From Polyangiales bacterium (GTDB lineage: Bacteria > Myxococcota_A > Polyangia > Polyangiales > Polyangiaceae), in NCBI GenBank assembly GCA_038231275.1, contig JBBRLQ010000026.1, positions 47,926 to 111,925 on the forward strand: 64,000 bases of DNA. Direction: 5' to 3'. The translations under genes and the position numbers were made by a program. Below, in pieces: positions 18,627-52,164 of this stretch. Within the stretch, counting starts at the first letter, position 1. Each line of letters begins with the position of its first letter. The notes below the pieces were generated by a model that saw only the letters and a list, made by a program, of their open reading frames with translations, did not search any database and was not told the origin of the DNA.

Positions 18627-18627
18627 A

Positions 18628-22843: not shown

Positions 22844-22846
22844 CGA

Positions 22847-35988: not shown

Positions 35989-37929
35989 ATGTGCGGAATC
36001 GCCGGAATCCTCGGGCGCGTGGGCGACCGAAATCGCGCCGCGCTCCGCCGGATGAGCGCCGCGATGCTCCACCGCGGCCCTGACGCCGACGGCACCTGGG
36101 AGGCTCCGCCCGACGATCGGGGGCGCGGCGTCCTCCTGGCGCATCGTCGTCTCTCGATCATCGATCTGTCACCGGCGGGCGCGCAGCCGATGATCGATCC
36201 GGTCACCGGGCACGTCACGGTCTACAACGGCGAAATCTACAACTACCAGGCGGTGCGCGAGGAGCTCGCATCGGAGGGGCAGAGGTTCGCGTCGACCGGC
36301 GACACGGCGGTCATGCTCCGCGCGCTCTCGGTCCACGGGCGGCGCGCGCTGACGAAGCTGCGCGGGATGTTCGCGCTGGCGCTCTGGGATCCGGCGCGGC
36401 GCGAGCTCCTCCTCGCGCGCGATCCGCTGGGAATCAAGCCGATTTACGTCGCACGAAACTCGGACCCCGACGGAGACTGGTCGATTGCGTTCGCCTCCGA
36501 GGTGCGCGCGATCCTGGCGTCGGGCCTCCTGGGGACGGCGCGCCTCGATCCGCAGGCGGCGGCGTCGGTCGCGTGGAACGGCTTCGTCGTGGGGCCGCGC
36601 ACGGTCGTGGCGGGCGTCGAGCTCCTGTCGTCCGGGGCGGCGCGCGTCTACGACGCGGGGGGAACGCAGGTGGCGTCGGAGGAGTACTGGTCCATGCCGG
36701 CGCCCGGTCACGGATCTCCGGCGACGGAGGCCGAGCTGGCGCGCGCGCTGGAGGAGTGCCTGCGCCTGCACCTCATCGCCGACGTGCCGCTCGGGATTTT
36801 TCTCTCGAGTGGGATCGACTCGTCGGCGGTCGCGAACCTCGCGCAGCGCGCGGCCCCGGGCGGCGTGCGAACGTTCACGCTGGCGTTCGAGGAGAAAGAG
36901 TTCGACGAGGGAGCGTGGGCGAAGAAGATCGCCAAGGCGATCGGCACGCAGCACCAGGAGGTCGTGCTCACCGAGCAGGCGTTCGTCACCGGCCTCGAGA
37001 CCGCGCTCGACACACTCGATCAGCCGACGTTCGACGGGCTCAACTCCTACTTCATGTCGCGCGCCGTCCGCGACGCCGGCTTCACGGTGGCGCTCGTGGG
37101 GACCGGCGGCGACGAGCTCTTCGGCGGCTACACGTCGTTCCGCGATCTGCCTGCGCTCCTCGCGTGGTCCAAGCGCGCGCGCAGGATTCCACGCGGCGCG
37201 CTCGTCGGCCTCGCGCGCAAAGTCGTGGCGACGCTGCAGCCCGAGCGCGGCTCATTCCCGCGGCAAACACGCTGGGCGAAGCTCCCCGACATGATCCGAG
37301 ACGGCGACGATCTGCTCGCCCTCTACCAGCTCGCCTACGCGCTCTTCTTGCCGAGCACCCAGCGCGAGCTCGTCGGCGACGACGCCGCCCGCGCCTTGGT
37401 CGACGGCCTGCCCGCCGAGATGCACGCGCGCGTCGTCCGCGATACGCGCGGGCGATCTCCGCTGTCGGCGCTCAGCGTGATGGAAGAGCGCCTCTTCCTC
37501 GGCGAGCGCCTCCTCCGCGACAACGACGCCGCGAGCATGGCCGCGTCGATCGAGCAGCGCCTGCCCCTCGTCGATCAGGTGCTGTTCGAGACGGTGGATC
37601 GCCTCCCCGAAACCGTGCGCTATGCGCCGGTGAGAAAGAAGGCGGCGCTGAGGCGCGTTGGGCTCGCTGGGCTCGACCCCGCGCTCTTCAATCGCCCCAA
37701 GGTCGGCTTCGTCCTCCCGTTCGACCGCTGGATCCGGCAAGGACTGACCAAGGCCGTCGACGAGACGCTGCGGGATGCCGCGGCGGTTCGCGCGGCAGGC
37801 CTTCGCGCAGAGCCGGTCGAGCGCCTATGGCGAGCGTTCCAGGCCGGCGCGCCCGGCGTATACTGGTCGCGCGTGTGGTCGCTCTACGCGCACGTCCGCT
37901 GGTGCCATCGCCACAAGGTCCTCGCATGA
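35989..37929 (+). CDS. asnB: Asparagine synthetase family amidotransferase 2
   Basis: MCGIAG, HRGPD, NGEIYN, LSSGIDS, GGDELFGGY and EQRLPLVD. Confidence 0.92.
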   Translation: MCGIAGILGRVGDRNRAALRRMSAAMLHRGPDADGTWEAPPDDRGRGVLLAHRRLSIIDLSPAGAQPMIDPVTGHVTVYNGEIYNYQAVREELASEGQRFASTGDTAVMLRALSVHGRRALTKLRGMFALALWDPARRELLLARDPLGIKPIYVARNSDPDGDWSIAFASEVRAILASGLLGTARLDPQAAASVAWNGFVVGPRTVVAGVELLSSGAARVYDAGGTQVASEEYWSMPAPGHGSPATEAELARALEECLRLHLIADVPLGIFLSSGIDSSAVANLAQRAAPGGVRTFTLAFEEKEFDEGAWAKKIAKAIGTQHQEVVLTEQAFVTGLETALDTLDQPTFDGLNSYFMSRAVRDAGFTVALVGTGGDELFGGYTSFRDLPALLAWSKRARRIPRGALVGLARKVVATLQPERGSFPRQTRWAKLPDMIRDGDDLLALYQLAYALFLPSTQRELVGDDAARALVDGLPAEMHARVVRDTRGRSPLSALSVMEERLFLGERLLRDNDAASMAASIEQRLPLVDQVLFETVDRLPETVRYAPVRKKAALRRVGLAGLDPALFNRPKVGFVLPFDRWIRQGLTKAVDETLRDAAAVRAAGLRAEPVERLWRAFQAGAPGVYWSRVWSLYAHVRWCHRHKVLA

Positions 37930-38915
37930 GCTCGCGCAAGTACTGCCTCATCACCCCGTGCCGCGACGAAGCGAAGTACGCGAGGCGCACGCTCGACTCC
38001 GTCACGGGCCAGACCGAGCCCCCTACCCTCTGGGTCATCGTCGACGACGGCTCCAAGGACGAGACACCCGCGATCCTCGCCGACTACGCCGCGCGCTTTC
38101 CGTTCATCCGCGTCGTGACGCGCGCCGATCGCGGCGCTCGGAAGGTCGGCGGCGGCGTCATCGACGCGTTTTACTCCGGGTGGGACACGATCACGCCGAG
38201 CGACTTCGACTACGTCTGCAAGCTGGACCTCGATCTGGATCTTCCGCCCGCCTACTTCGCCGGCCTCATGGACCGGATGGAGGCTGGACCGCGCATCGGC
38301 ACCTGCTCGGGAAAGCCCTATTTTTTCCCTGAAAGCACCGCCGACGACGTCGTCACATTTCCACTGTCCGATCCCAGCTCGGTCGGCCTTGTCTCCGAGA
38401 TGATTGGCGACGAGCACTCCGTCGGGATGACCAAGTTCTACCGAACGAGCTGCTTCGCGCAGATCGGCGGCTTCGTGCGCGAGGTGATGTGGGACGGCAT
38501 CGACAGCCACCGCTGCCGCCAGCTCGGGTGGATCGCGGTGTCGTGGGACGATCCCGCGCTGCGCTTCGTGCATCTCAGGCCGATGGGGACGAGCCAGAAG
38601 AACTGGTGGACCGGCCGCGTTCGCCACGGCTTCGGGCAGTACTTCATGGGCACCGCGCCGGTGTACATGCTGGCGAGCGCGATCTACCGCATGACGCGGC
38701 CGCCGCTCGTCGTCGGCGGCATCGCGATGATGCACGGCTACCTGGACAGCATGGTCAAAGGGAAGCCGCGGTACGGGACGCCGGAGTTCCGGGCGTTCTT
38801 GCGGCGCTACCAGCTCGCGTGCCTCGTGAAGGGCAAGAAGCGCGCGACAGAGGAGCTCGACGCAGAGCAGGCCGCGCGCTGGCATCCGTCGCCAGAGGAC
38901 GCGCCGCGCTCGTGA
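37926..38915 (+). CDS. GT2 glycosyltransferase
   Basis: ITPCRDE, VDDGS and KLDLD. Confidence 0.88.
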   Translation: MSSRKYCLITPCRDEAKYARRTLDSVTGQTEPPTLWVIVDDGSKDETPAILADYAARFPFIRVVTRADRGARKVGGGVIDAFYSGWDTITPSDFDYVCKLDLDLDLPPAYFAGLMDRMEAGPRIGTCSGKPYFFPESTADDVVTFPLSDPSSVGLVSEMIGDEHSVGMTKFYRTSCFAQIGGFVREVMWDGIDSHRCRQLGWIAVSWDDPALRFVHLRPMGTSQKNWWTGRVRHGFGQYFMGTAPVYMLASAIYRMTRPPLVVGGIAMMHGYLDSMVKGKPRYGTPEFRAFLRRYQLACLVKGKKRATEELDAEQAARWHPSPEDAPRS

Positions 38916-40693
38916 CGACGGGCCTCGCCATCCCCGTCGTCTTCGGGCCCGCGGGCCGCGCGATCTCGGGGTTTCATCACCCGGCGCGCGCCGCGGATGG
39001 ACGCACGCGCGCCATCGGTATCGTCTTGTGCAATCCGCTCGGGTACGACGCGATGTGCACGCACCGCACGTACCGTCACCTCGCCGAGCGCGCGGCCGAG
39101 CACGGATTTCAGACGCTGCGCTTCGACTACGAAGGGACCGGAGACTCCGCCGGTCGCCCGGACTCGCCCGATCGCGGGCGGGCGTGGCTCGACAGCGTCG
39201 CATTCGCGATCGACGAGTTGCGCGCGCGCTCAGGCGTCGAGAAGGTCGCGCTCTTCGGCGTACGGTTCGGCGCGACCCTCGCGGCAACGGCGGCGGCGAC
39301 GCGCGACGACGTGGACGCGCTGATCTTGTGGGCGCCGTGCGCGTCGGGGCGCGCGTACGTGCGCGAGCTCCGCGCGTTCCGGATGATCAAGGCGAAGGAA
39401 GCGCCGAAGGCGAGCGACGTGGGCGACGAGGAGGTGGCGGGCTACCTCTTCGACAAGGCGACCGTGGCGGACATGAGCGCGCTCGATCTCCTCGCTCGCC
39501 GTGAGCGGCCGGCGCGACGCGTGCTCGTCGTCCCGCGTGATCTGGCGTCGGCAGAGGCCCGCCTGGTCACGCACCTCGAGGCGGTGGGCGCCGCGGTGAC
39601 CGTCGCGCGTGAGTCGGGGTACGCACTGATGATGCGCGATCCGCAGGACACGATCGTCCCCGTCGGCACGTTGGACGGGATCGTCGAGTGGCTGGCGCAC
39701 GGAGAGCCCTTGGATTCGCCGCACCCTCCCTCTCGAGACCATGCGCCTCCGCCCGTGCTCACCACGACCGCCGCGTCGGGCGCCGAGGTCCGCGAAGAGG
39801 CCGTGCAGTTCGGCGACGGCGACCGCCTGTTCGGCGTGGTCACCGAGCCCATCGCGCGCGAGTGCCTCGCGGGCGGCCCGACGATCTTGTTCTTGAACGT
39901 GGGCGCGAACCACCGCGTCGGGCCGAACCGCATGTACGTCTCGATGGCGCGTGACCTCGCCGCGCTCGGCTACCGCGGCATGCGCTTCGACGTGGCCGGC
40001 CTCGGCGACAGCCGCATCGCCCCCGGCGCGCCCGAGAACCGGCTCTATTCGAAGGACTCCGTCGTCGACGTGAAAGCGGCGATGGACTTTCTCGAGAAGA
40101 CGCGCGGCGCGAGGCGCTTCGTCCTCCTCGGGTTGTGCTCGGGCGCGTACCTCGCCTTTCATACCGCCGTCGAGGACCCTCGCGTCGTCGGTCAGGTGCT
40201 CTTGAACCCACAGACCTTCGAGTGGAAAGAGGGGGACTCGCTCGAGCTCTCGATGCGAAAGAGCTTCCTCTCGACCCGCTACTACGCGCGCGCGCTCTTG
40301 GAGCCGGCGATGTGGAAGCGGCTCGTACGCGGGCGAGTCAACGTGCGCGGCGTCATGGGTGCCCTGCGCGAGCGAATGGCGACGCAGGCGCGCGCCCGCG
40401 CGGAGGCGCTACGTGCACGGCTCACCGGCCAGCGCGAGCCGCAGACCGACATCGAGCGCGCGTTCGTCGCCATCTCCGATCGCGGCGTCGCTTCGCTGCT
40501 GGTCTTCAGCTTCGATGACGGGGGCCTCGACATGATCGAGCAGCACCTCGGCCGGAACGTCCGCAAGATGGCCCGGCGAAAGAACTTCCATTTCGAAATC
40601 GTGGACGGCGCCGACCACACTTTCACCCCCATCCACTCGCAGCACACGCTGCACGGGATCGTCACCCGCTACGTGACGGCCAGCTTCGGCTGA
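38912..40693 (+). CDS. Tandem double alpha/beta-hydrolase-fold protein (exosortase-associated hydrolase 2 + hydrolase 1-like)
   Basis: Two RFD..G.GDS domains. Elbow motifs are GVRFG (domain 1) and GLCSG (domain 2). C-terminal GADHTF. Confidence 0.8.
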   Translation: MTTGLAIPVVFGPAGRAISGFHHPARAADGRTRAIGIVLCNPLGYDAMCTHRTYRHLAERAAEHGFQTLRFDYEGTGDSAGRPDSPDRGRAWLDSVAFAIDELRARSGVEKVALFGVRFGATLAATAAATRDDVDALILWAPCASGRAYVRELRAFRMIKAKEAPKASDVGDEEVAGYLFDKATVADMSALDLLARRERPARRVLVVPRDLASAEARLVTHLEAVGAAVTVARESGYALMMRDPQDTIVPVGTLDGIVEWLAHGEPLDSPHPPSRDHAPPPVLTTTAASGAEVREEAVQFGDGDRLFGVVTEPIARECLAGGPTILFLNVGANHRVGPNRMYVSMARDLAALGYRGMRFDVAGLGDSRIAPGAPENRLYSKDSVVDVKAAMDFLEKTRGARRFVLLGLCSGAYLAFHTAVEDPRVVGQVLLNPQTFEWKEGDSLELSMRKSFLSTRYYARALLEPAMWKRLVRGRVNVRGVMGALRERMATQARARAEALRARLTGQREPQTDIERAFVAISDRGVASLLVFSFDDGGLDMIEQHLGRNVRKMARRKNFHFEIVDGADHTFTPIHSQHTLHGIVTRYVTASFG

Positions 40694-40701
40694 TTTTCTT
40701 C

Positions 40702-43236
40702 TTACGTCTTCGCGACGACGATCTTCGTCGGCGAGGCTGCGTTCAGAGGGACGACGCGGCCGGGAGACGCGTCGGTGCGGAGGCCGTGCAGCGTGACGGT
40801 GCGCTCGCCGCCCGGCTCGACGTGGAAGAACTCGTCGTCGGCGACGAATCCGCGCGCGTCGAAGGCGACGGCGAGCGCGAGCCTCTTGGCGCGCACGGTG
40901 ACACGCCACGTCTCCGCGGGTCCCGGCGTCGCCACCGCCTCGACGCCGAGGTCTGCCGCCCGCGCGTGCGGGGTGCCGCACGGGAAATGGAACGCGCGCC
41001 CGATGCACGCCCCGTCCTTCCGATCGACGAGGGTGCCGACGACGAGATCGTGTCCTGGCGGACCGAAGCGGTACGCGTAGGTCGTGTCGACGAAGCGCCC
41101 GAGGACGGAGTCGGCAGAGATGGCGGTCACGCCGCGCGCCGGGACGGCCACCGGCGCGGCGCCTTCGACGACGCGTACATCGCCCCGGTAGAGCGTGACG
41201 CGCACCTCCGTGTCGAGCGCCACGGGGCCGTCGTTGACGGCGTGGAACGTGAGGCCGTTGAGGCCTTCGTCGGTCGCGAGGAGGGCCACCGGCGCGAACG
41301 CACGCGCGAGGTAGTGGTACGCCGCCTTGGGACGCCCGTTCGCGTCGACGACGCCCCACCCCGCCCCCGCCCAAAGGTCACGGAGGAGCCAGACCAGCGC
41401 ACCTTTGCACTCCGAGCCCGCGCGTCGAAACTCCGAGATCGTCGCGAGCATCGCCTCGCCGGTGACGACGCGCCCGAGCTCGAGGTAGCGCGCGACGTCG
41501 GCGGCCCGAAGCAGCGCCGGATCGACGCCGAAGAGTCGGCCGAGGTAGTGATCGCGAACGTCCTCGAAATCCCACGAGGCGCCGCGATCGCGCGGGACGC
41601 GGGCCTTCCATCGCGGGTGGTTCGGAGGAGACTCACCGTCGCGGAGGAGGCCCTCGATCGTCTCGTCGCACGGGACGTTCGCGAACGCGAGGCACTCGGC
41701 GGTGAAGCGCACGCGAGATCGTCGCGCGTCTTCGAGCGGCCGCAAGTACGCGCCGACGCCGTAGTAATGCGACACCCCCTCGTCGACGCGGAACGGCAGC
41801 GCCCCGCCCTCCGGTGTGCTCGCCACGTAGGGAACGTCGGGACGCGCCGCGCGCGCGACGGCCGGCAAGAGCTCGTCGAAGAGCGGACCGGACCACTCCT
41901 TCTCCGGCAGGCCGAGCATCGCGGCCTGCTGCGCGACCTCGCTGTTTCCGCAAAAAATTGCCAGGCTGGGCGAGAGCTGGAGCCGGCTCGCGAGCTGCGT
42001 CGCCTCGGCGCGAACGGACGCAGCGAACGCCTCGTCGGCGATCGGGTAGTCCATGTTGGCGAACATGAAGTCCTGCCACACCATGATGCCGAGCTCGTCG
42101 CAGAGATCGTGGAAGGTCTCGGGCGCGTAGCCCATCGTGCCGCCGACGCGGAGCATGTTCATCCCTGCGCGCGCGGCCATCGTGAGCGCGGCGCGCAGAT
42201 CCTGGAGATCGTCGCCGTCGGTGATCCCGACGAGGTCGAGCGGCGTCCAGACGGCCCCTCGCGCGAAGACGTCCACCCCGTTGACGCGAACGCCGAAGCC
42301 GCCGCCCTCGCGATCGAGCGTGATCGTACGAAAGCCGGTCCTGCCGAGGTCCATCTTCACGTCGCCGCGATCGGTGTGGGCGACGACGACGACGTCGTGG
42401 AGCGTCGGCGCACCGTGGGTCGCCGGCCACCAGAGCGCGACGTCGGGGATCGTGAGCGTGCCGCGCGCGACGACGGCGCCGTCCGCCTGCGATTCGGTGA
42501 CCAGCTCCGTGACCGCGGCCCCGACGGCGAGCGATACGCTGCGAATGAGCGCGGGTCCGACGGTCGCGAGACGGAGCGCGATGTCCAAGGCGCCGTCGCG
42601 ACCCTCTACGCGCGTCCTCGCGTCGGCAGAGAGCACGCATACACGCCCGCGCCGCTCGACGGCGATCGCGCGGTAGGGCCCGACCGGCGCGACCGGCGGC
42701 GACCACGCCGGGATGCGCCCGAGGAGCGCCGTTCGAATCCAGCGAAGCTGCTGCTGCGCCACGATCTGCGCGCGCCACCGCGGCCGCGGGCGGCGCTTCT
42801 TCAGCTCCTCGGTGATCGACGCGAACCGCAGGACGAGCTCGCCCGGGCCGCCGTGGCCAGTCACGTCGACGTCGTGCGCGAGGAACATGTTGTCGGAGCG
42901 AAGGACGTGCGCGCCGTCGAGCCACACGTCCGCGAGCGTCGCGAGGCCGTCGAAGCGGAGGATCACCTTCTCGTCGGCCTCGCGCGGCGTGAGGTCGACC
43001 TTCGCGCGAAACCACCAGTCGCTCTCGTCGAAGTCGCGCCCGTCGTCGAGGCTCCACGCCTTCGCGGCCGCGAGCGCGCTCGCCGCGGTGCCCGGCACTC
43101 GCGCGTCGAACCAGCGCGCGCTCGCGGCCTCGAGCCCCGCCGGATCGCTCACGGAGCCCGCCGCAAGCGCGGCGCACGACCATCCGCCCGAAAGCGTGGT
43201 CACCAGGGTCCCGTCGATCGCGCGGACCTTGGCCAT
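40702..43236 (-). CDS. GH2 beta-mannosidase-like protein, no signal peptide
   Basis: FDGLAT, SDNMF, NMLRVGG, GIMVWQDFMFA and CGNSE. Confidence 0.87.
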   Translation of the reverse strand: MAKVRAIDGTLVTTLSGGWSCAALAAGSVSDPAGLEAASARWFDARVPGTAASALAAAKAWSLDDGRDFDESDWWFRAKVDLTPREADEKVILRFDGLATLADVWLDGAHVLRSDNMFLAHDVDVTGHGGPGELVLRFASITEELKKRRPRPRWRAQIVAQQQLRWIRTALLGRIPAWSPPVAPVGPYRAIAVERRGRVCVLSADARTRVEGRDGALDIALRLATVGPALIRSVSLAVGAAVTELVTESQADGAVVARGTLTIPDVALWWPATHGAPTLHDVVVVAHTDRGDVKMDLGRTGFRTITLDREGGGFGVRVNGVDVFARGAVWTPLDLVGITDGDDLQDLRAALTMAARAGMNMLRVGGTMGYAPETFHDLCDELGIMVWQDFMFANMDYPIADEAFAASVRAEATQLASRLQLSPSLAIFCGNSEVAQQAAMLGLPEKEWSGPLFDELLPAVARAARPDVPYVASTPEGGALPFRVDEGVSHYYGVGAYLRPLEDARRSRVRFTAECLAFANVPCDETIEGLLRDGESPPNHPRWKARVPRDRGASWDFEDVRDHYLGRLFGVDPALLRAADVARYLELGRVVTGEAMLATISEFRRAGSECKGALVWLLRDLWAGAGWGVVDANGRPKAAYHYLARAFAPVALLATDEGLNGLTFHAVNDGPVALDTEVRVTLYRGDVRVVEGAAPVAVPARGVTAISADSVLGRFVDTTYAYRFGPPGHDLVVGTLVDRKDGACIGRAFHFPCGTPHARAADLGVEAVATPGPAETWRVTVRAKRLALAVAFDARGFVADDEFFHVEPGGERTVTLHGLRTDASPGRVVPLNAASPTKIVVAKT

Positions 43237-44219
43237 CAGACCTGGTAGCGCCGGGCGAGCGCCGAGACGCCAACCTCCCACGCGCGCTCGAGGTCCGACA
43301 GCATCGGCCCCAGATCGACGACCTTCTTCGCGCCGACCGCGCGCGCGGTCTTCAAGATGAGCGATTTACTCGTGTCGGAGATCGCCATGAACGCCTTCGC
43401 GCTCTCCTCCAGGCCGCCCTCACCGCGCTCGCCGAGCCACCGCAGGTAGAGCGCCGCGAGCTCGAACGCAGAGCCGAGCTGCCGGATCGTGGCGAACGCG
43501 TACACGTGGTACGCGCCGAGCCCCTCCCCCTTGAGCCGCTCGACGTCCTCCTTGAACCGCGCTGAGAAGCGCGCGAGCGGGTTGTCGTCGGGCCGACGCG
43601 CGAGGTGCTTTTGCAAGAGCTCCACCGAGCGGCGCGTAAGATCCGCCGGATCGCGAAGAACGACCCGCGCGGTGCGGACGAACTCCGCGAAGAACGGCAT
43701 GAACGTCGGATCGGCCGGCGCGCCCAGTCGAAACAGGCTCACGAAGTCCTCGCCTGCGAGCGCGTGGTAGCTGCTGTTGTGGAAATACCCGAGCGTGCGC
43801 GCCTCGACGTCGATCTCCTGGATGCCGATCGTCGTCTTCGTGTGCTGCGTTCGGTAGTCGGTTCCCACGGTGTCGGGCAAATAGAACGCGTCGGCCTCCG
43901 CCAGGACGAGCTTGCCGCCGCGGAGCATCTCTTGCGCGTTGTCGATGAGCGGGCGGTAGACGTTGAGCTCTTGGATGTCGAGGCCGTAGAGCGCCGTCAG
44001 GTCCTCGTGCGGCGGCTTGAAGAAAGTGAATTGATCGCCCTCCCAGTCGAGCCCCATCAAGAACCCGAGGCACGCGTGCGGATCGCAGCCGAGCGCGTGC
44101 AGGACCTCGATCCACACGTCGATGTAGCAGTTCGACTCGCCCCACGCGCGCGTCGGGCCGTGGAGCGCGTGCGGCACGTATGCCTTCGCGTCGATCGACC
44201 GGAGCGCGGCGACCTTCAC
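43236..44219 (-). CDS. DUF1839 family protein
   Basis: SNCYIDVWIE, EGDQFTFFKPP, DAFYLPDT, HTKTTI, YFHN and FATIRQLG. Typical neighbour of aa:CP ligases. Confidence 0.8.
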   Translation of the reverse strand: MKVAALRSIDAKAYVPHALHGPTRAWGESNCYIDVWIEVLHALGCDPHACLGFLMGLDWEGDQFTFFKPPHEDLTALYGLDIQELNVYRPLIDNAQEMLRGGKLVLAEADAFYLPDTVGTDYRTQHTKTTIGIQEIDVEARTLGYFHNSSYHALAGEDFVSLFRLGAPADPTFMPFFAEFVRTARVVLRDPADLTRRSVELLQKHLARRPDDNPLARFSARFKEDVERLKGEGLGAYHVYAFATIRQLGSAFELAALYLRWLGERGEGGLEESAKAFMAISDTSKSLILKTARAVGAKKVVDLGPMLSDLERAWEVGVSALARRYQV

Positions 44220-45127
44220 GGCCAGAGCTTCTCCCGGACCGCCGCCGGCCACGTCTTCGGATCGAAACCGTGGTGCTTGAAGAGCGCCATGCACACGCGC
44301 TCCATCCCGAAGCCGAGGCACGCGGTGTTGGCGAGCTTGCCGTCGGCGGTCTTGATGTCGAAGATCTTGCCGAAGTGATCCTGGTGCCAGTTGAAGGAGC
44401 ACACCGCGGTGGGCTTCTCTTCGGAGATGACGGGGATGGTGACCTCGAATTTGAGCTGCTGCTCGCGCTGCGTCGCCGCGAGCATGCGGCCGCCGCGGCC
44501 GAAGAACGGATCGTTCGCGACCTCCGGCTTCGCGGGGAGGCCGAGGGCGCGCATGATCGTGACGCCGCGCTCGAGCCACATGTCACGCCACGCGACGACC
44601 ACCTCCGGCGCGCCGACCCGCACGAACTCGCGGACGCGGAAGGCCTGCATGCGCGTCGGCTCGGTCGACGGCTCGTTGCGGAAGACCCAGTTCTGCATGT
44701 CGACGAGTCGCCCCGCCGGGCCGAGCGTGCCTGTGAAGCTCGGATAGACGGGGTAGCAAGCGGCGGGCGTCAGCACCACGTCGGTCATCGTCTGGAGCGC
44801 GCTCCACGACTCACCGGCGTGGACGCGCGACGCGAGCTCCGCGTGCTCCTTCTCTTTGCCGGCGAACGAGAAGACCGTGCCGGCCAGCTGCGGGAACGAG
44901 TCCAGGAACTCGCTCTTTTCGAGCACCTTGCGATCTAGCGTCGGCGGAAAGAGCATCTGCTCGGCGCCGTCGTCCTTCGCGACGCGCGAGACGTAGTCGT
45001 CGAAGTGACGGAGCACGTCCTCGAAGACGGCGTTTCGCCCGAAAATTCCCGGCACGCCGACCGGGATGATGAGCCCCGACTGGACCAGCCCGTCGTAGAG
45101 CTCCTGCGAGGAGTACGTCACGCCCAT
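44216..45127 (-). CDS. Amino acid:[carrier protein] ligase (atypical SerRS catalytic-domain homolog)
   Basis: PAACYP, FRNE (motif 2), FRVREFV, ANDPFFGR and TACLGFGMER (motif 3). No tRNA-binding domain. Confidence 0.92.
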   Translation of the reverse strand: MGVTYSSQELYDGLVQSGLIIPVGVPGIFGRNAVFEDVLRHFDDYVSRVAKDDGAEQMLFPPTLDRKVLEKSEFLDSFPQLAGTVFSFAGKEKEHAELASRVHAGESWSALQTMTDVVLTPAACYPVYPSFTGTLGPAGRLVDMQNWVFRNEPSTEPTRMQAFRVREFVRVGAPEVVVAWRDMWLERGVTIMRALGLPAKPEVANDPFFGRGGRMLAATQREQQLKFEVTIPVISEEKPTAVCSFNWHQDHFGKIFDIKTADGKLANTACLGFGMERVCMALFKHHGFDPKTWPAAVREKLWP

Positions 45128-45142
45128 GAAGGTTCGCCTCGT

Positions 45143-46321
45143 TCAGTCGTCCTTGAGGACGAGCAACATCGACGCGTTCGTCGACAGGATGCGATCGTTG
45201 CCCACCATGAGCGCCGCGGAGAGCGCGTCGCGGAGGTGACGGCCGACCGAGAATTTAGAGTCGTTCTTGTAGCCCATGATTCCGCAAATCTGGAGCGCGT
45301 GGTGGACGATCTGCGACGCCATCTGCGACGACGAGACCTTCAGGTTGTTCATCTTCAGCGCAAAGGCGATCGACGACAGACTCTTGGTGCCCTGCTCGTC
45401 GTCTTTCATGAGCGCCTCGCACTCGCTCGCCACGTCGTGCGCGTTGGTGCGCATCGACTGGAGCATGCTCGAGACCTCGGCCAAGCGGAGCGCGCTGGGA
45501 GGGACGGTGCCGGGTTTGGCGCGCGCTTGCTGGCGCACGAACGCGCGCGCGCGCCGCACCGCGCCCATCGATATGCCGAGCCACACGTTCGACCACAAGA
45601 CGTGGCTGAACGGCACCTGCGTCTCGCTCGCGACGTCGGAGAACGGCGTCGTGAAAATCTGACCATCCTCCCCCTTCGATTGGAGCATGAACGGCGGGCT
45701 GCAGGTGCCGCGCATGCCGAGCGTGTCCCAAACGCCTTTCTGGGTGAGCGTGACGTCCTTCTTCCTGACGAGGACGAAGATCTGATCGTTCGGGGGCGAG
45801 TCGGGGCCCCGCCGCGCCTGGAAAAGGATGTCGTCGGCCTGCGCGCCGTAAGAAATCGTCGTGCAGTCCTTGTCGAGGGTGAAGCGCCCGGCGCCGTCGT
45901 GCGCCACCGCGCATTTGCTGGTGCGCATCTCTCCGCCGATGCCGGCCTCGCTCGTCGCCGAGGCGATCAGGATCTGCTCGCGGACCAGATCGCCGACGTA
46001 CTTCTGGTAGTACGGCTGTCCCATCGCGTGGCGAAGGATGCTCGCCACCTGGATGTGGTGCATCGCGAAGACCATCGCCGCGGACGCGCAGTGCTGGCCG
46101 AGCGCCTCGCACATCGCGGCGAGCTCGATCATCCCGCACCCGAGCCCGCCTTGCTCGCGCGGGACGAGCGCGCTCATCATACGCGCCTTCTTGAGCGCCT
46201 CGATCGCTTCGGTCGGGAAGCGCGCGTCGCGATCGACGGCGTCGGCGGCGGGGCCCGCGATCTCCTCAGCGAGGCGCTGGACGATCTCGACCGACGACGA
46301 GCGGGTCTCCTGGGCTTGCAT
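45143..46321 (-). CDS. Acyl-CoA/acyl-ACP dehydrogenase family flavoprotein
   Basis: VDRDARFP, ASATSE, WDTLGMRGTCS, ALQICGIMGY and RHLRD. Confidence 0.9.
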   Translation of the reverse strand: MQAQETRSSSVEIVQRLAEEIAGPAADAVDRDARFPTEAIEALKKARMMSALVPREQGGLGCGMIELAAMCEALGQHCASAAMVFAMHHIQVASILRHAMGQPYYQKYVGDLVREQILIASATSEAGIGGEMRTSKCAVAHDGAGRFTLDKDCTTISYGAQADDILFQARRGPDSPPNDQIFVLVRKKDVTLTQKGVWDTLGMRGTCSPPFMLQSKGEDGQIFTTPFSDVASETQVPFSHVLWSNVWLGISMGAVRRARAFVRQQARAKPGTVPPSALRLAEVSSMLQSMRTNAHDVASECEALMKDDEQGTKSLSSIAFALKMNNLKVSSSQMASQIVHHALQICGIMGYKNDSKFSVGRHLRDALSAALMVGNDRILSTNASMLLVLKDD

Positions 46322-46345
46322 GATTCGTGCGTTCCCTGCTTCCGC

Positions 46346-46588
46346 TCAGCGGTCCTTGGTCAGCTCTTCGATCGCCGCCCGGATGGCGGCGACGCTCTCG
46401 AACACCCCGCGGCGCAGCATGCGATCGGGGAACTCCACGTCGAACGTCCCCTCGAGCGCGAGCATCACGTTGACGCTGGCGTGCGACGTCATCCCCGACT
46501 GGTAGAGATCGCCGTCGTCGGCGAGGGCGTCGACGTCGACCGCCAGGCGACCGTGCTCCTTCAGGATGGCGCGAATCTGATCGTTCAT
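46346..46588 (-). CDS. Acyl (aminoacyl) carrier protein 2
   Basis: 80 aa, GMTSHA Ser motif and LE..FDVEFPD. Confidence 0.88.
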   Translation of the reverse strand: MNDQIRAILKEHGRLAVDVDALADDGDLYQSGMTSHASVNVMLALEGTFDVEFPDRMLRRGVFESVAAIRAAIEELTKDR

Positions 46589-47025
46589 GGGCGATGGGCT
46601 CCGGGCTTGCGTGCGCGCGTAGAGAGGCGGCTCGTCGTGGAACGTTCACGCTCGCCCATGACGACGGCGATGGCGAGGTTCCCCTGGTGGCTGATGGACA
46701 CTTCGAGAGACCGCGCGCCCGCACGCCGCGCCGCACGCTCCGCCGCGCCCGACAGCGCCACGCCACACGCGCCGTCGGCAGCCTTCGTCACCTCGATGGA
46801 TCGAGGATCGACGCCGACGTCGCTCGCACGGAGGGCCTTGATCGTCGCCTCTTTCACGGCGAAGCGGCCCGCGAGGCGACGCGCCGTCTCGGGAGGCGCT
46901 GCCATCGCGTACGCGATTTCTGCCGGCGTGTAGATGCGGGAGAGGTACCGGTCCCCGAAGGTCCGCATCGCATCCTCGACCTCGCGTACGTCCACCAAGT
47001 CGGTTCCGAGCAAGACCCCTCGCAT
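46585..47025 (-). CDS. acpS: Holo-ACP synthase (AcpS-type PPTase)
   Basis: GTDLV, RFAVKEA..KA and VSISH. Confidence 0.9.
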   Translation of the reverse strand: MRGVLLGTDLVDVREVEDAMRTFGDRYLSRIYTPAEIAYAMAAPPETARRLAGRFAVKEATIKALRASDVGVDPRSIEVTKAADGACGVALSGAAERAARRAGARSLEVSISHQGNLAIAVVMGERERSTTSRLSTRARKPGAHRP

Positions 47026-47070
47026 GGTGCGTTCTCGAACACGATACCACGCTGCACCAACCTTGAGCCC

Positions 47071-47832
47071 TTACTTACGCGACGCGCCGCGCAGCAAAAT
47101 CCACGCGAATTTCGGATCGCGCACCAGGTACCGGCGCCAGAGGCGACGCGGCTCTCGCCCGAGGCGGTAGGCCCACTCGAGGCCGTTCTTCGACATCCAC
47201 GCCGGCGCGCGCGGGATGGTTCCGGCGACGAAATCGATCGACGCACCGAGGCCGAGGAGCACCGCGGGCGCGAGCGCCTCCTTGGACTCGTGGATGAAGA
47301 GCTCCTGCTTCGGCGCGCCAAGGCCTACGACGACGATCTCCGGCGCGGCCCGCTTCACCGCCTCACGGATCGCGTCGCGACGTTCGAACGGCTCGCGCAT
47401 GTCGACCCGCGGCGCGAGCGTGCCCACGATCGCGATGCCGGGGAGAGTCTTCTCGAGCTCCTGCTGCGCCCGCGCCGCGACCCCGTCTCCGCCCCCGAGG
47501 AGGAACACGCGCCATTTGCGCGACGCCGCACGACGGAGCAGCGGCATGACCAGATCGGATCCCGACACCTTCTCCGGCAACGGCCTGCCGAGGAGGCGCG
47601 ACGCCCACAGCACCGGCATCCCATCGGCGACCGAGAGGCTGGCCGCCTCGTAGGCCGCGCGCATCGCCGGATTCTCGGAGTATTCGACGACGTGATCGAC
47701 GTTGGGCGTGAAGACCGAGCCGCCTTTCTTCGCGACGACGAGCGCGTCGATCGCGTCGACGGTCTCCGCCAACGTGAGCGCGTCGATGGGAACGCCGCCG
47801 ACGCGCACGCGCGAATGAAGGGCGGACACCAC
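47071..47832 (-). CDS. WecB/TagA/CpsF (GT26) glycosyltransferase (EpsA-like)
   Basis: TPNVDH, ADGMP, GLGAPKQE and GLEWAYRL..EPRRL. Confidence 0.92.
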   Translation of the reverse strand: MVSALHSRVRVGGVPIDALTLAETVDAIDALVVAKKGGSVFTPNVDHVVEYSENPAMRAAYEAASLSVADGMPVLWASRLLGRPLPEKVSGSDLVMPLLRRAASRKWRVFLLGGGDGVAARAQQELEKTLPGIAIVGTLAPRVDMREPFERRDAIREAVKRAAPEIVVVGLGAPKQELFIHESKEALAPAVLLGLGASIDFVAGTIPRAPAWMSKNGLEWAYRLGREPRRLWRRYLVRDPKFAWILLRGASRK

Positions 47833-47838
47833 GGGCGG

Positions 47839-50016
47839 CTATTTCTCGAGAGGGCCCGCGATCGGTCGGGCCAGGCGCAGGTCCACGACCGTGATCGACC
47901 ACGGCGGAAGGACCGTGTCGGTGGACGACGGCGCGGCATCCCCGCGCTCGGGGGCGACCGCGGTGAGCGTCCGTGCCCCCCGCGCGAGGACGTACGTGCT
48001 CATCGACGTGACCGCGCCGCACGTGTCGAGCCCGAGCTTCGCGAGCACCGCCTCGTCCGGGGACTGGTTGACCGCGAGCAGCACGAGGTGCTGCCCCGCC
48101 TCGTCGCGCGACGCAAAGAGCGAGACGTGATCCGCGCCGGTGGTCGGGACGTACCAGTCGAGGAACCGCCCGCCCTTGCCGTCGAAATTCCGGTACGCCA
48201 GGAACGCCTGCACGACCGGCGAGCCCTCGGTGGGGTGCGTCCAATAGAACGCCGACGTGATGCCGTGCTGCGCGAAGCGACCGAGCGCCTCCGCGGTTGC
48301 GAGCGCGCCGGAGATGTGACCCTCGCCGCCCATGTTCCACTCGCCGATCGATATCCCGCGGCCTGGGTAGTTCTTGTCGACCCACTCCTTCATGCGAGGC
48401 AGGAGGCGCACCGGCTCCTTGATCCACGACTCGTCCGTGTAGGTCGGATCCCACAGGCCGCGCGTCTGGCGAAGACGCAGCGCAGCCCCCTTCGTGTCCG
48501 TGCCGCCGTTGCCGTAGACGTTGTCGCCTTGCGGATAGAAGTGCAAATCGAGGACGTCGAGGACGCGAACGCCGGTCTTCTGCTCGTGCTCGCGCAGCTT
48601 CTTCAGGTACCACTCGACGAGCGGGACGTCGTCGTGCGCGCGACGGTCGGGGCGCGCGGAGGGGCCCTGGAGGTTGTCCTTCGCCGAGTAGAAATACCCG
48701 GTCCAGCCCCACTCGGCGGGTCCGGCGATGACCGCATCGGGATCGGCCTGCCGGATCGCGGTGCCGTAGCGGATGGTGCGATCCAGCAGCTCGTCGTACC
48801 CGAGCGGCTCGGGGTGCACGTCGCGGTGTTTGTTGCTCCAGAGCATCGGCTCGTTGTCGAGGATGTACTGGTGCACGCTGCGCTTGCCGGCCTTGGCGTC
48901 GCGGGCGCGGATCGCCTCGACCCATCGCTTCATGAACTCGGGCGGCGAGGGCACGCTCGTGCGCGTCGCCGGCCCCGGCGCGATCGGCTTGCCGGCGGGG
49001 CTCATCCCGTCGCCCGCCTCTTTGAGCCACGGATCGGTCTTCGCTTGGGCGCCGAACGCCGACACTGGAAACGAGAACGACGTGTCGTCCTTGGCGACCC
49101 ACCCCATCATCGGGATGGTCAGAGCGCTCATCATGCCGTGCGCCTCGTCGTCCTCGAGGAACTTGTCGTACTTGAGCGCCGCGCCTTTGTTCTCGAAGAA
49201 CCAATCGCCGCCGAGGTTCCAGTCGCCGAGCTCCCAGTTGTAGCGCGTCGTCGTGTTGCCGCCGAAGCGGCGCGCGGTGGCGCCCATGTTCCACTGCGCG
49301 GGATCCTTGTCGGTCTCGTGGTAGTAGGCGATGCCGTAGATGAGCGGGTTTATCTTGGTGGCCTTCGCCTCGCACGACACGCGCACCGTCGCCGGCTTCG
49401 CCTTGCCGGCGTAGCTCGCCGGGCTCACGCGCGCAGAGGCGATGGCCGCCGGGTCGGCCTTGGTGAACGCGACACCGTCGATGAGCGTGACCTCGTCGTC
49501 GATGTCGCGAAAGGCGCGGAAGATGACGCGATCGAACGACACGTCATCGGGGTTGAGCTCGTGGATGGGGATGCGCACGTCGTACCAGCCGTCCGCGCTC
49601 CCGACGTGGTGCTCAGCGCGCACCTTCACGCGCGGGAACGTGGTCATCGTCGGGATTTCCAGCCGCACCTCGAGGAATTCGGCCTCGCCCTTCGGCTCCT
49701 TCACGCGGAAGACGAGCGCGCCGTAGCTCGCGGGCTTGAGCTTCTGCTTCGTCAAGATCCAGCCGCCCCACTTGGTGAAGTGGAGCGCCGCCGGCCCCGG
49801 GCCTCCCGTCGTGCGTGGGCACCAGCCCCAGTCCTGCCACTCGTTCTTGAGGCCGCCCGCGAAGATGTCCTCGGCGTGCTCTTCGTGGGCCGGCGGTGGC
49901 GGCGCGGGAGTCGCGACCGTGGGACCCCCGCTTCCCTTGGGCGGCTCCTTCGTGCACGCTGAGGCCGCCACGCACGCTGCGAAGGCGAGACCCGCGCGTC
50001 GCGTCGTGCGGTTCAT
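47839..50016 (-). CDS. GH44 endoglucanase-like lipoprotein (EpsB-like)
   Basis: Lipobox ASAC, N-terminal beta-sandwich, RFGGN..TRYNW, LDNEP, LDLHFYPQ and IGEW. Confidence 0.87.
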   Translation of the reverse strand: MNRTTRRAGLAFAACVAASACTKEPPKGSGGPTVATPAPPPPAHEEHAEDIFAGGLKNEWQDWGWCPRTTGGPGPAALHFTKWGGWILTKQKLKPASYGALVFRVKEPKGEAEFLEVRLEIPTMTTFPRVKVRAEHHVGSADGWYDVRIPIHELNPDDVSFDRVIFRAFRDIDDEVTLIDGVAFTKADPAAIASARVSPASYAGKAKPATVRVSCEAKATKINPLIYGIAYYHETDKDPAQWNMGATARRFGGNTTTRYNWELGDWNLGGDWFFENKGAALKYDKFLEDDEAHGMMSALTIPMMGWVAKDDTSFSFPVSAFGAQAKTDPWLKEAGDGMSPAGKPIAPGPATRTSVPSPPEFMKRWVEAIRARDAKAGKRSVHQYILDNEPMLWSNKHRDVHPEPLGYDELLDRTIRYGTAIRQADPDAVIAGPAEWGWTGYFYSAKDNLQGPSARPDRRAHDDVPLVEWYLKKLREHEQKTGVRVLDVLDLHFYPQGDNVYGNGGTDTKGAALRLRQTRGLWDPTYTDESWIKEPVRLLPRMKEWVDKNYPGRGISIGEWNMGGEGHISGALATAEALGRFAQHGITSAFYWTHPTEGSPVVQAFLAYRNFDGKGGRFLDWYVPTTGADHVSLFASRDEAGQHLVLLAVNQSPDEAVLAKLGLDTCGAVTSMSTYVLARGARTLTAVAPERGDAAPSSTDTVLPPWSITVVDLRLARPIAGPLEK

Positions 50017-50609
50017 GCCTTCTCTCCGGCGCCGTCGTCCGACTCGTCCTTGGACTCATCCCGCTCAGGAGGAGGAGGAGGAGGAGGAGGAGGGCCTGCG
50101 GCGCTCGCTTCTTCGTCCGACACGAGGAGCGTGCCGATGAACTTCTCGAGCCCCACCGCGTCGAGCGTCTTCTGCGCGACCTTCGCCTCGGTCTTCCCGA
50201 GCTGAACGCAGAGCACGGCGGTGTCGGCGGCGCGCGCGAGCGGGGCGGTCGTCGGATTCTCCGAGGTCGAGCGCAGCGCGATGAAGACGCGCTCGCCCCC
50301 CTTCAAGTCGGACGCCATCTCTCGCAGCTGATGCTCGAGGAGGCGCAGGCTGAGATCCCGCATGTCGAACACCGCCGACGGCTGGCCGGTGTACCACCAC
50401 GCGATCTTCGCCAGATCGTTGGCGACCTTGAGCGTGTCGATCCCCTTCGACGCGCCGACGACCGCGAGCGTCCTCCATGACCGCTTCTGGAGGGACAGCC
50501 AGAGGTGCTGCATCTTCACGTCGTCGGAGAGCGGGCCGCTCTGCGGACGAACGGCGAGCGCATCCGACCTCGGCGTGGAGTGGGGCGTGGGCGGATCTTC
50601 CTCCGTCAT
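50013..50609 (-). CDS. Degenerate BY-kinase-like (Wze-type pseudokinase) partner of the co-polymerase
   Basis: LWLSL...WRTLAVV, degenerate P-loop, ARAADTAVLCVQLGKT and FIG. Lies directly downstream of the co-polymerase. Confidence 0.65.
   Translation of the reverse strand: MTEEDPPTPHSTPRSDALAVRPQSGPLSDDVKMQHLWLSLQKRSWRTLAVVGASKGIDTLKVANDLAKIAWWYTGQPSAVFDMRDLSLRLLEHQLREMASDLKGGERVFIALRSTSENPTTAPLARAADTAVLCVQLGKTEAKVAQKTLDAVGLEKFIGTLLVSDEEASAAGPPPPPPPPPERDESKDESDDGAGEKA
50067..50093. repeat. Perfect (AGG)9 trinucleotide repeat encoding Pro9
   Basis: Read directly from the sequence. Confidence 0.9.
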
Positions 50610-50625
50610 GGGAGACCTCGCCGGC

Positions 50626-52164
50626 TCACGGTGGTGGCGACAAATCGCCGAGGATGGGGAGCTTCAACCGACGCTCGACCTGCCACGGCTCCATCAAGCG
50701 CCCTCGCCACAAATCGACGCCCCCCGGGACGAGCACCATCAAGAGGAGAGACAGGAGCAGGGAGCCGAAGAGCACGAGCGAGACGTTGGGCTTGCTCGGC
50801 CCACGCGCGAGCTCCGGCGGACGGACGACCGTGTACTGGTACTTGAACGCCGCGCGCGTCACCTCGAGCTCGATGTTGGCGGCCTCGATGCGCGAGAGCA
50901 GCTCGTTGTACTTCGTGGACGCGTTGGTCAGACGTTGGCGAGCAAGGACCGTCTTCGTGTCGTCGCGCAGATCGACGGTGGGCCGCAGGCGCGGGACCGT
51001 CGGCGCGGGGACCGAGGGGGCGAAGCGCGGCGGCGCCGGAGCGTCGGTCGACGCGGGCACCGGCGCCGGCGCGGGGATCGCCAGCAGCGCGATGAGCTCC
51101 CGCTCTCTTGCGTCGAGCGCCTTCAGCTCCGCGGGCGCCTCGACGAGCTGCGCGAGCTTCTCGTTGAGGCCGACGACGGTGGGGTGCATCGGACCGAGCG
51201 TCGCCCGCGCGTCCACGAGCTGCCGCTGCGCGTCGGCGACTTGCCGCTCATGGTCCTCGGTGATCGCGCGGATGCGCCGCCTCACGTCCTGGAGCTCGTG
51301 CGCGACGTCGCTCTCGGCGGGCGCGACACCTGCAGTCGTCGCGGTGGTAGGGCGCGGCGCGGTCACCGTGGAGGCCGGCCGCGGCGCGGTGCCCGGCGTA
51401 TGCACCGCGGGCGTGGTGGGCGTGGGCGTGATCGGAAGGGCCGGCCCGCCCGTCCCGCGCTCCGCCTCGATCTTCATGAGCTCCGCGAGCGCCGCGTCGA
51501 CCTCCGCGGCCTGCGGTTTCGCGCGCTCGTCGAGGATCCGAATGGCCTCGACGATGACGTTCACGTTCGCGTCGTAGCGCGCTTCGAGAAAATTCTTCTG
51601 GACGAGGGAAACGATATCGAAGGCCGTCTCGCGATCGGGCCACTCGATCGAGATCGTGATCGTCGACTCGTCCGCGAGCACCACGAGGCGTTTGGCGAGC
51701 AGACCGATGATGTCGCGCAGCCGATCGTCCTCCGACTTCGTCCCGAGCACGCCGAACACCGAGTCCTTGAAGCGCGCCGCCGGCTGACGCGTCGCCTCCC
51801 AGCGATCGACGAGATCGAGCTGCTTGGTGAGGGCGACGAGGTTGTCGCTGCGGAGGATCGCGTCGGCGGCGTTCTTGGTCGGCGCGTCGGCCTCGTGCGG
51901 CACCGCGCGGCCGGGGTTGTCGAGCGCCGGCAGCACCAGGTTTCGCTGCGCGAGGATGCGGAGATCGCAGGTGTACGTGCGCGGCAAATACTTCGCGATG
52001 AGGAACCCGAGGACGAGCGTCAAGATGAGCGACGCGGCGGCGAGGCGGGGGCGGCGGCGAGGCGCGCGGAGGAGGAATCCGGCGATCTCCTTCAGCTGCT
52101 GCAGATCGAACTCGTCCTCCCGGCCTTCTTCCGACGGGTCCCGAGCGCGTGGGTTCGTGGACAT
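50626..52164 (-). CDS. Polysaccharide co-polymerase (Wzc/GumC/EpsV-like, no kinase domain)
   Basis: TM helix, periplasmic coiled coil with GPMHPTV, VVRPPELA..P.KP, second TM helix and LPILG. Confidence 0.85.
   Translation of the reverse strand: MSTNPRARDPSEEGREDEFDLQQLKEIAGFLLRAPRRRPRLAAASLILTLVLGFLIAKYLPRTYTCDLRILAQRNLVLPALDNPGRAVPHEADAPTKNAADAILRSDNLVALTKQLDLVDRWEATRQPAARFKDSVFGVLGTKSEDDRLRDIIGLLAKRLVVLADESTITISIEWPDRETAFDIVSLVQKNFLEARYDANVNVIVEAIRILDERAKPQAAEVDAALAELMKIEAERGTGGPALPITPTPTTPAVHTPGTAPRPASTVTAPRPTTATTAGVAPAESDVAHELQDVRRRIRAITEDHERQVADAQRQLVDARATLGPMHPTVVGLNEKLAQLVEAPAELKALDARERELIALLAIPAPAPVPASTDAPAPPRFAPSVPAPTVPRLRPTVDLRDDTKTVLARQRLTNASTKYNELLSRIEAANIELEVTRAAFKYQYTVVRPPELARGPSKPNVSLVLFGSLLLSLLLMVLVPGGVDLWRGRLMEPWQVERRLKLPILGDLSPPP

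Follow-up and report, generated by a model that had tools for sequence, protein, structure and literature searches.

A seven-gene carrier-protein cassette in a myxobacterial eps-type locus, with a candidate carrier-dependent acyltransferase and a probable role in decorating a surface sugar polymer

In the Dlt system (DltA/C/B/D), an amino acid is placed on a dedicated carrier and then passed to a cell-surface glycopolymer, and AlmEFG carries out a comparable carrier-based aminoacylation of a surface polymer. Ligases that couple amino acids to carrier proteins (aa:CP ligases) have been described in PMC9437257 and PMC5370406, and the former, a 2022 review, calls their role unknown. Amide transfer to a surface sugar was predicted in 2010 (PMC2922099), and a five-gene neighborhood, a papain-like fold and glycan processing were described in 2023 (PMC10318531). 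The closest operons are those of Bradyrhizobium (Bll0957; PDB 3mey and 4h2w) and Agrobacterium (the Atu2574 region), which carry the same ligase family and, in the supplement of PMC10318531, the order acyl carrier protein (ACP), acyl-CoA dehydrogenase (ACAD)-fold flavoprotein, ligase, DUF1839, and GH2; the Bradyrhizobium glycine ligase adjoins the ACAD gene bll0958 (PMC10888616). Here, we analyzed a 64,000-nucleotide stretch of contig JBBRLQ010000026.1 from a Polyangiales bacterium, hereafter the window, which contains an intact copy of this orphan kit within an eps-type exopolysaccharide (EPS) locus.

In the window, the same five genes lie adjacent and in the same order, and the copy differs from the Bradyrhizobium and Agrobacterium operons in adding an AcpS-type phosphopantetheinyl transferase and a convergent tandem alpha/beta hydrolase, and in sitting in a myxobacterial eps-type locus (Table 1). 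Neither the tandem hydrolase nor the fold match to CcbD and CtaG reported below is mentioned in the available text of PMC2922099 and PMC10318531. Relative to Dlt and AlmEFG, the module has a ligase resembling class II aminoacyl-tRNA synthetases (aaRS) instead of an adenylation domain, lacks an MBOAT protein, and adds a predicted redox step, a papain-like candidate transferase, and GH2. We conclude that the cassette probably loads a small amino acid on its carrier and attaches a group derived from it to a surface sugar polymer.

CcbD and CtaG are carrier-dependent amide-forming enzymes, of which CcbD takes carrier-bound proline onto a Cys and from there to an amino sugar, while CtaG couples two chains that are each carrier-bound; BtrH and AsbE are relatives by prediction, and all four make small molecules (PMC12945683, PMC12865890). 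Our DUF1839 model (pLDDT 96, pTM 0.93), a papain-like N-terminal domain followed by a helical C-terminal domain, matched CcbD (Z 19.8, root-mean-square deviation 3.5, 288 residues aligned), AziU3 (Z 18.5), and CtaG (Z 17.3, deviation 3.7, 272 aligned), with the next match at only 8.4, and Foldseek agreed (E 1e-7 to 1e-4). The likeness to CcbD/LmbD and CtaG/BtrH/AsbE covers the whole two-domain length and includes an N-terminal catalytic-type Cys, and in those systems too a carrier protein and a loading enzyme are found in the same cluster. Because a DUF1839 profile search of PDB sequences returned nothing below E 0.6, the link is one of fold only; identity to these proteins is 11-17%. Among 117 DUF1839 matches, Cys31 is kept in 116, Asp34 in 117, Thr/Ser129 in 116, and His147 in 117. 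We infer from the model that DUF1839 is a candidate carrier-dependent acyltransferase.

To place the window copy among its relatives, we used 80 related loci fetched with DUF1839, 47 of which span at least 20 kb and form our full-length set. ACP and ACAD are present in all 47 of these, GH2 in 46, the tandem hydrolase in 45, and the ligase in 43, while AcpS is optional (26 of 47), some loci carrying an Sfp-type enzyme instead. The unit is a mobile seven-gene kit. DUF1839 itself turned up in 7 of 300 further genomes from the source phylum, in 18 of 400 Pseudomonadota plus the genome on which that sample was centered, and in 7 of 40 relatives. Variant cassettes also occur. In five without a ligase (L007, L008, L033, L069, and L115), ACAD runs almost directly into DUF1839, and L033 has an AMP-binding enzyme before acpS, possibly a replacement loader; L011 is ambiguous owing to frameshifts. 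Two genomes hold two DUF1839 copies each (L093 in G698; L100 and L110 in G616), one L093 copy apparently lacking the catalytic-type Cys, possibly through a miscalled start, and in L082 DUF1839 stands alone amid plasmid transfer genes. A dedicated flavin reductase was rejected as a core member, being directly upstream of ACP in L050 only, with the L056 and L063 copies among unrelated genes.

The preliminary description of this DNA had recognized six tightly packed minus-strand genes and overlooked the seventh, the tandem hydrolase, whose end lies 8 nt from the GH2 stop. In the Pseudomonadota sample, a full-length hydrolase is present in 19 of 19 genomes with DUF1839, and DUF1839 in 19 of 20 genomes with a full-length hydrolase. 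On profile comparison the protein is a fused relative of the exosortase-associated hydrolases TIGR03100 and TIGR03101, both halves scoring below the family cut-offs (138.5 versus 168.45 and 105.6 versus 202.75). Its first domain has Arg118 at the nucleophile position, where matches mostly have Arg or Gly. The second has Cys409 in a GLCSG motif together with Asp568-His569; Cys409 is kept in 84 of 88 matches (the other 4 lack coverage) and His569 in 82 of 88 (6 lack coverage). A fold search with the hydrolase model (pLDDT 89) retrieved generic single-domain alpha/beta hydrolases only.

Fusion and position tie this seventh gene to the flippase. In L092, L094, and L096 the hydrolase follows a Wzx flippase domain in a single 1,093-aa fusion protein, confirmed by Pfam in L092 (Polysacc_synt_3, E 8e-12). 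The fusion gene (L092:14316-17597, likewise in L094 and L096) lies downstream of efp-epmA-epmB and the cassette. In five genomes the hydrolase is detached from the core. Its neighbors there are Wzx or polysaccharide co-polymerase (PCP) genes in G469, G380, G694, and, for one of two copies, G563, and GT4 genes in G608. Finally, in G692 (L167), the sole genome of the Pseudomonadota sample with a full-length hydrolase and no DUF1839, genes for an amino-acid adenylation enzyme and a 78-aa open reading frame (ORF), presumably a carrier, come directly before the hydrolase, between PCP and GMD genes. The fusion, the detached neighbors, and the G692 layout together suggest that the other genes build the acyl group and that the hydrolase connects it to the glycan. 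In 18 Undibacterium loci the gene adjoining the hydrolase is flippase-like by Atlas and has a weak NCBIfam match to an O-glycosylation flippase (E 0.002-0.006); this membrane protein gave no match in pairwise BLAST against a Wzx and none to Pfam.

We also asked how often the cassette lies near polysaccharide genes, counting phosphoglycosyltransferase (PGT), Wzx, outer-membrane polysaccharide export (OPX), PCP, Wzy, and WecG markers, each confirmed by Pfam, NCBIfam, or annotation, within the fetched regions of about 20 kb (that is, within about 10 kb of the module). Marker matches of at least 60% identity were discarded, and the source genome and the centre genome were left out. The sample comprised 26 loci, 7 of which end early at contig ends, and the control windows came from 21 of the 25 genomes. 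Markers were present in 10 of 18 genomes of Pseudomonadota (at 11 of 19 loci) and in 1 of 7 genomes of the source phylum, giving 11 of 25 evenly sampled genomes compared with 2 of 40 matched control windows taken on those contigs; in the source genome itself, 8 of 416 tiles contain markers. Pfam found OPX in one further genome, and among four further relatives Wzx, PGT, or WecG stands beside the module in three and none does in one. Acyl_transf_3, GNAT, and polysaccharide-deacetylase genes also recur around the cassette. A PCP match in L086 was rejected as a RepA/ParA false positive.

One other cassette neighborhood resembles a characterized biofilm polysaccharide locus. On a Burkholderia cenocepacia replicon (L171), Crp-ACP-ACAD-ligase-DUF1839-GH2 lies between a sigma54 regulator gene and a second, outer Crp gene, with GNAT and ManC next and Wzc, Wzx, the hydrolase, and OPX nearby, a layout that matches bep; the core layout in Burkholderia JSH-S8 is identical. 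The bep locus encodes an Acyl_transf_3 protein, a TIGR03100 hydrolase, and a COG2153 acyltransferase (PMC3584217), and berB and berA correspond to Bcam1342 and Bcam1349 (PMC9684580, PMC5552954). L171 has the five-gene core plus Crp; the six L171 genes would be Bcam1343-1348, an identity drawn from synteny in another strain with a different polysaccharide gene order. The literature searched gave no phenotype for Bcam1343-1348, and the available supplement of PMC7474642 had no match for the candidate locus tags. The Bep polymer was extracted in 0.3 M NaOH and its spectra were read in NaOD (PMC7084887). Such alkali treatment would be expected to remove esters but probably not amides.

The individual enzymes give further indications of what might be transferred. 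The ligase scores 421 bits against its NF005479 cut-off of 357 and aligns with Bll0957 over 19-300 (E 8e-74), corresponding to a truncated seryl-tRNA synthetase (SerRS) catalytic core that lacks the tRNA-binding domain. C124, E167, and C270, which we take to bind Zn, are kept in 105, 106, and 109 of 109 matches, with the same motifs in Bll0957. Gly272 is present in 101 of the 109, and Ala in 8 Solirubrobacterales-type loci; Bll0957 also differs from the window ligase in having Ala here. The Ala-to-Gly substitution A281G reportedly widened ligase specificity to Ala and Ser, and on that basis Gly272 suggests a pocket wider than that of Bll0957. The carrier, encoded two genes upstream of the ligase, scores 108 bits against its NF005480 cut-off of 72, and Ser35, its presumed phosphopantetheine (Ppant) site, is kept in 105 of 105 aligned matches. 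The module genes are each single-copy in the source genome, barring one distant ligase homolog (G000, C21:13079-14584), which is longer, about 30% identical, and has an extra N-terminal region, possibly of methanogen-type SerRS-like character; ORFs near it look hexapeptide acyltransferase- and flippase-like by eye.

The flavoprotein has the ACAD fold by PF02771, PF00441, and PDB matches, but by sequence alignment it has no acid at either position that we take to hold the usual catalytic Glu/Asp, namely, the C-terminal IYEG position (here V373) and the helix-G position (S239), and in this it departs from a canonical alpha,beta-desaturase. Position 373 is V or I in 110 of 111 matches, all 111 have S, T, C, or A at position 239, and His240 and Trp243 are invariant (111 of 111). 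Its best single-sequence PDB matches include flavin N-oxygenases, only marginally above ordinary ACADs. Glycine cannot undergo alpha,beta-desaturation, and since the Bradyrhizobium glycine ligase nonetheless has an ACAD neighbor, oxidation at C-alpha/N or at N would seem to be the reaction. With both catalytic acids missing, the transferred group is probably oxidized rather than a plain amino acid. GH2 belongs to the beta-mannosidase type (E 5e-56) and keeps its catalytic Glu pair (E433 in 103 and E514 in 105 of 106 matches); the residue before the acid/base is Ser432 (Ser in 102 of 106), where the solved beta-mannosidase 6bye has Asn (GNNE), and we speculate that this Ser makes room for a C2 substituent.

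The preliminary description had named the six genes as acpS, ACP, ACAD, aa:CP ligase, DUF1839, and GH2, 45 nt downstream of tagA, and had proposed one probable transcript from about 52164 to 40702. The gene identities were confirmed by Pfam and NCBIfam matches, and all six ORFs are present on the minus strand; GC content at third codon positions is of coding type in all except the short acpS (0.80). With starts corrected for DUF1839 (GTG at 44219) and GH2 (ATG at 43236), the junctions are 45 nt (tagA-acpS), -4 (acpS-ACP), 24 (ACP-ACAD), 15 (ACAD-ligase), -4 (ligase-DUF1839), and -1 (DUF1839-GH2), so both the tight packing and the 45-nt distance stand. A crude scan found no strong hydrophobic stretch in any module protein. 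The upstream run of co-polymerase, Wze, GH44, and TagA genes is likewise as described, with gaps of 16, -4, and 30 nt to the TagA start at 47808.

The single transcript is doubtful, given a promoter-like element in the gap and the absence of tagA directly upstream in relatives. A simple scan for the sigma70 consensus found none, and its terminator search gave 6 against 5.1 expected, a chance level. Within the 45 nt between tagA and acpS lies an extended -10-like element, TGGTATCGT, the end of which is 15 nt ahead of the acpS ATG. The genome (9.3 Mb) contains 15 copies of this 9-mer, 10 of them with an ATG, be it a gene start or not, within 16 nt, 7 of these at 6-8 nt before the ATG. In statistics that rest on a crude in-house gene caller, TGnTAnnnT occurs in 82 of 1,315 codirectional gaps in sense and 4 of 1,315 in antisense, in 80 of 788 divergent gaps, and in 2 of 600 convergent gaps. 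This strand bias, together with the TGGTATCGT spacing, suggests leaderless transcripts in the source organism. The 13-mer GCGTGGTATCGTG also precedes acpS in L005, whose module points away from the EPS operon, and a similar element is found before epsV. In L005, L009, and L016 the module is oriented away from the locus's own EpsV-WecG operon, and in L023, L052, L055, L060, L093, and L100 same-strand EPS genes with other partners run into it. We rejected tagA as a conserved module partner: TagA-like matches occur in 8 of the 80 DUF1839 loci and 5 of the 47 of at least 20 kb, never directly upstream in our listing of upstream genes. The module probably has its own promoter, for which the extended -10-like element is the candidate, and a strict single transcript with no internal start is unlikely, although some read-through from tagA may occur.

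From cotranscription with EPS export genes, the preliminary description had also argued for glycan aminoacylation. The glycan link stands, now carried by the DUF1839 fold, the Wzx/Wzy enrichment, the Wzx-hydrolase fusion, and the bep-type locus. The cotranscription argument itself is weak, because of the promoter-like element in the gap and because an inverted wzx precedes acpS in the two closest relatives (L002 and L003, 86% and 83%), and "aminoacylation" is probably too simple a term, since all 47 full-length loci have an ACAD-fold enzyme.

The wider locus (about 17.6-55.7 kb) contains EpsZ-, EpsW-, EpsX-, EpsY-, Wzx-, and Wzy-like genes and is of the Wzx/Wzy class; its best matches are Myxococcus xanthus Eps models, all below the NCBIfam cut-offs. 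Compared with the M. xanthus eps locus (PMC7484181), the window has EpsZ-, Wzx-, EpsY-, EpsX-, EpsV-, Wzy-, EpsB-, and EpsA-like genes, whereas the available text of that paper lists no such cassette for M. xanthus. The EpsV-like PCP has a visible ATG at 52164, and the Wze-like gene (168-198 aa) is Pfam-negative.

Table 1. Features of the cassette and its immediate surroundings (positions in the window)
Feature	Position	Strand	Remarks
AcpS-type phosphopantetheinyl transferase, 146 aa	46585..47025	-	Pfam ACPS; optional member
Dedicated carrier protein, 80 aa	46346..46588	-	PP-binding; NF005480 above cut-off
ACAD-fold flavoprotein, 392 aa	45143..46321	-	Pfam Acyl-CoA_dh
Amino acid:[carrier protein] ligase, 303 aa	44216..45127	-	NF005479; Bll0957 homolog
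DUF1839, 327 aa; papain-like domain and helical bundle	43236..44219	-	PF08893, E 1e-105
GH2, beta-mannosidase type, 844 aa; no obvious signal peptide	40702..43236	-	Pfam
Tandem alpha/beta hydrolase, 593 aa, seventh member	38912..40693	+	Halves resemble TIGR03101 and TIGR03100, scoring below cut-offs
Extended -10-like element (GCGTGGTATCGTG region), candidate module promoter	47041..47053, approximate	-	tagA-acpS gap
WecG/TagA (EpsA-like) glycosyltransferase	47071..47808	-	Not a conserved direct neighbor
GH44 (EpsB-like), Wze-like gene, EpsV-like co-polymerase	47839..52164	-	Context

Other genes of the locus also deserve mention. A second carrier-protein cassette (17646-23089, plus strand) encodes NadE-like and AsnB-like proteins, an AMP-ligase (TIGR03098-like), a HemK-like methyltransferase, and an ACP, and is kept at 81-91% in G706. 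A second AsnB-like amidotransferase gene (35989-37929) and a GT2 gene (37926-38915), both on the plus strand, lead straight into the tandem hydrolase, an order kept in L002. At 27348-28271 (plus strand) lies a single alpha/beta hydrolase of about 300 aa. Such a hydrolase, a 220-aa hydrolase, a 135-aa GNAT, and Acyl_transf_3 recur near the cassette in myxobacterial loci (L005, L019, L020, L041, L056, and L063); these are possible further accessory transferases.

Taken together, we favor, with somewhat more confidence than doubt, a reading in which the module is a self-contained kit of the cytoplasm that supplies and transfers acyl groups, decorating a Wzx/Wzy surface glycan before its repeat unit is flipped. 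Going by the protein families, AcpS would prime Ser35 of the ACP, and the ligase would load a small amino acid as a thioester, probably Ala, Ser, or Gly, as shown for homologs. The ACAD-fold enzyme may then oxidize the carrier-bound amino acid at or next to its nitrogen rather than desaturate it, to give an imine, a 2-oxoacyl group, or an N-oxygenated product. Judging from the fold, Cys31 of DUF1839 would accept the acyl group and form an amide with an amine acceptor, with CcbD (amino sugar) and CtaG (second carrier-bound chain) as models. The Cys-nucleophile tandem hydrolase, as the flippase's partner, might make the final handover to the undecaprenyl-linked repeat unit or might unload the carrier, and GH2, more speculatively, could supply or trim a 2-substituted beta-manno-type sugar. 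In the source genome, the polymer made by the eps-type locus around the module is the most likely target. A more far-reaching version, which we regard as tentative and on balance doubtful, is a so far unrecognized cross-phylum route for Wzx/Wzy decoration. In it, an oxidized acyl group derived from an amino acid would be built on the carrier by an aaRS paralog together with a flavoenzyme lacking the usual base and a CcbD-like ligase, and the Cys-hydrolase would esterify the lipid-linked repeat unit with it, leaving a base-labile group hidden in Bep and in the source myxobacterium's EPS. Such an ester would not show in the Bep structure as published, because NaOH was used for extraction.

A number of observations weigh against glycan decoration, or against parts of it. 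AziU3 has a DUF1839-like fold and yet is not an acyltransferase and is functionally unrelated (PMC12945683, PMC12865890), and the DUF1839 site has been published as a permuted C(T/S)H (PMC10318531), as opposed to the Cys-His-Glu/Asp of CcbD/LmbD and CtaG/BtrH/AsbE. The bep transposon screen yielded 12 genes, Bcam1330-1341, and the six between berB and berA were not among them in the available text (PMC3584217). The Bep repeat (PMC7084887) consists only of neutral hexoses (Gal, Glc, Gal, and Man) and shows neither an amino sugar nor a substituent; because amides probably survive NaOH and amino sugars are lacking, an amide on Bep itself is disfavored. The hydrolase is also more loosely linked in the source phylum, where it is clear in 5 of 7 DUF1839 genomes, a half-type match in G249, and missing in G279, while G229 and G264 have fused-type matches and no DUF1839; about 11 other genomes of this phylum have only half-length matches or split pairs. 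The Fisher p of 2e-4 for marker enrichment is overstated, as L092/094/096, L102/103, and L093/098/100 look like kin. No Wzx/Wzy marker lies near either core or hydrolase in 5 of the 18 Pseudomonadota genomes (G567, G517, G353, G543, and G625, the last with GH5 only), nor near most loci of the source phylum (L111, L113, L115, and L117). Core markers are found in only 20 of the 80 close loci, many being short contigs or from one genus, with the 18 Undibacterium loci and their flippase-like gene coming on top of these 20, and an EPS cluster is present at 1 of 9 annotated plasmid or chromid loci.

It is also possible that the acylated product is not a polymer. Were it a small acylated glycoside, a glycolipid, or a periplasmic-glucan substituent, with colocation near EPS genes reflecting shared regulation or sugar supply, one would understand why full cassettes stand by themselves in Azospirillum, Phyllobacterium, Rhizobium, Mycetohabitans, Kofleriaceae-type, and Solirubrobacterales loci, the candidate promoter of the module's own, and the small molecules made by CcbD, CtaG, BtrH, and AsbE, as well as a cytoplasmic GH2 that is hard to fit into polymer decoration. 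The Wzx fusion, the detached hydrolases in Wzx/PCP neighborhoods, and the recurrent Acyl_transf_3, GNAT, and polysaccharide-deacetylase neighbors are at odds with such a product, which we consider distinctly unlikely, if worth keeping in mind.

The acceptor could instead be a flipped glycan destined for proteins or lipids, as in exosortase/PEP-CTERM-type systems or O-glycosylation, rather than bulk EPS. The resemblance of the hydrolase halves to TIGR03101 and TIGR03100 would fit this, as would the lone Undibacterium flippase-like gene, which has no polymerase and a weak O-glycosylation flippase match, the Rhizobium-type loci that hold only GT4, the Wzx-hydrolase fusion, and GT4, and the bare Bep repeat. 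Here and in many other loci, however, the cassette is surrounded by PCP, OPX, and Wzy genes that serve a secreted polymer, and no sortase or target gene lies nearby (no genome-wide search for one was made), so that we think this quite improbable. More improbable again is an editing or recycling role, in which acylated sugars or stalled repeat units would be degraded or salvaged by GH2, DUF1839, and the hydrolase, with the carrier as no more than a transient sink. Hydrolase folds do account for three of the seven members, and neither catalytic Glu is lost from GH2, but an ATP-consuming ligase, a dedicated ACP, and often a phosphopantetheinyl transferase point to synthesis, and the nearest DUF1839 folds are ligases, not peptidases.

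Decoration of a Wzx/Wzy surface glycan therefore remains the reading we prefer. The window does not solve the role of aa:CP ligases, and the idea of a surface sugar acceptor dates from 2010. In the literature we searched, which left out most subscription journals, no paper connected the cassette with Bep, the Wzx fusion, or the CcbD fold. What our analysis adds is a candidate for the acyltransferase, whose structural relatives have been solved, a previously overlooked seventh gene that both fusion and position tie to the flippase, and genetically tractable loci in bep-type Burkholderia and Rhizobium-type genomes, including a Bep-type polymer that was characterized under ester-stripping conditions. 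If the cross-phylum route were true, Bep and the EPS of the source myxobacterium would carry a hidden substituent, and the role of the aa:CP ligases, open since 2010, would be solved. If the proposed decoration is true, the cassette would represent a new chemistry of biofilm-polysaccharide modification in myxobacteria, rhizobia, and Burkholderia.

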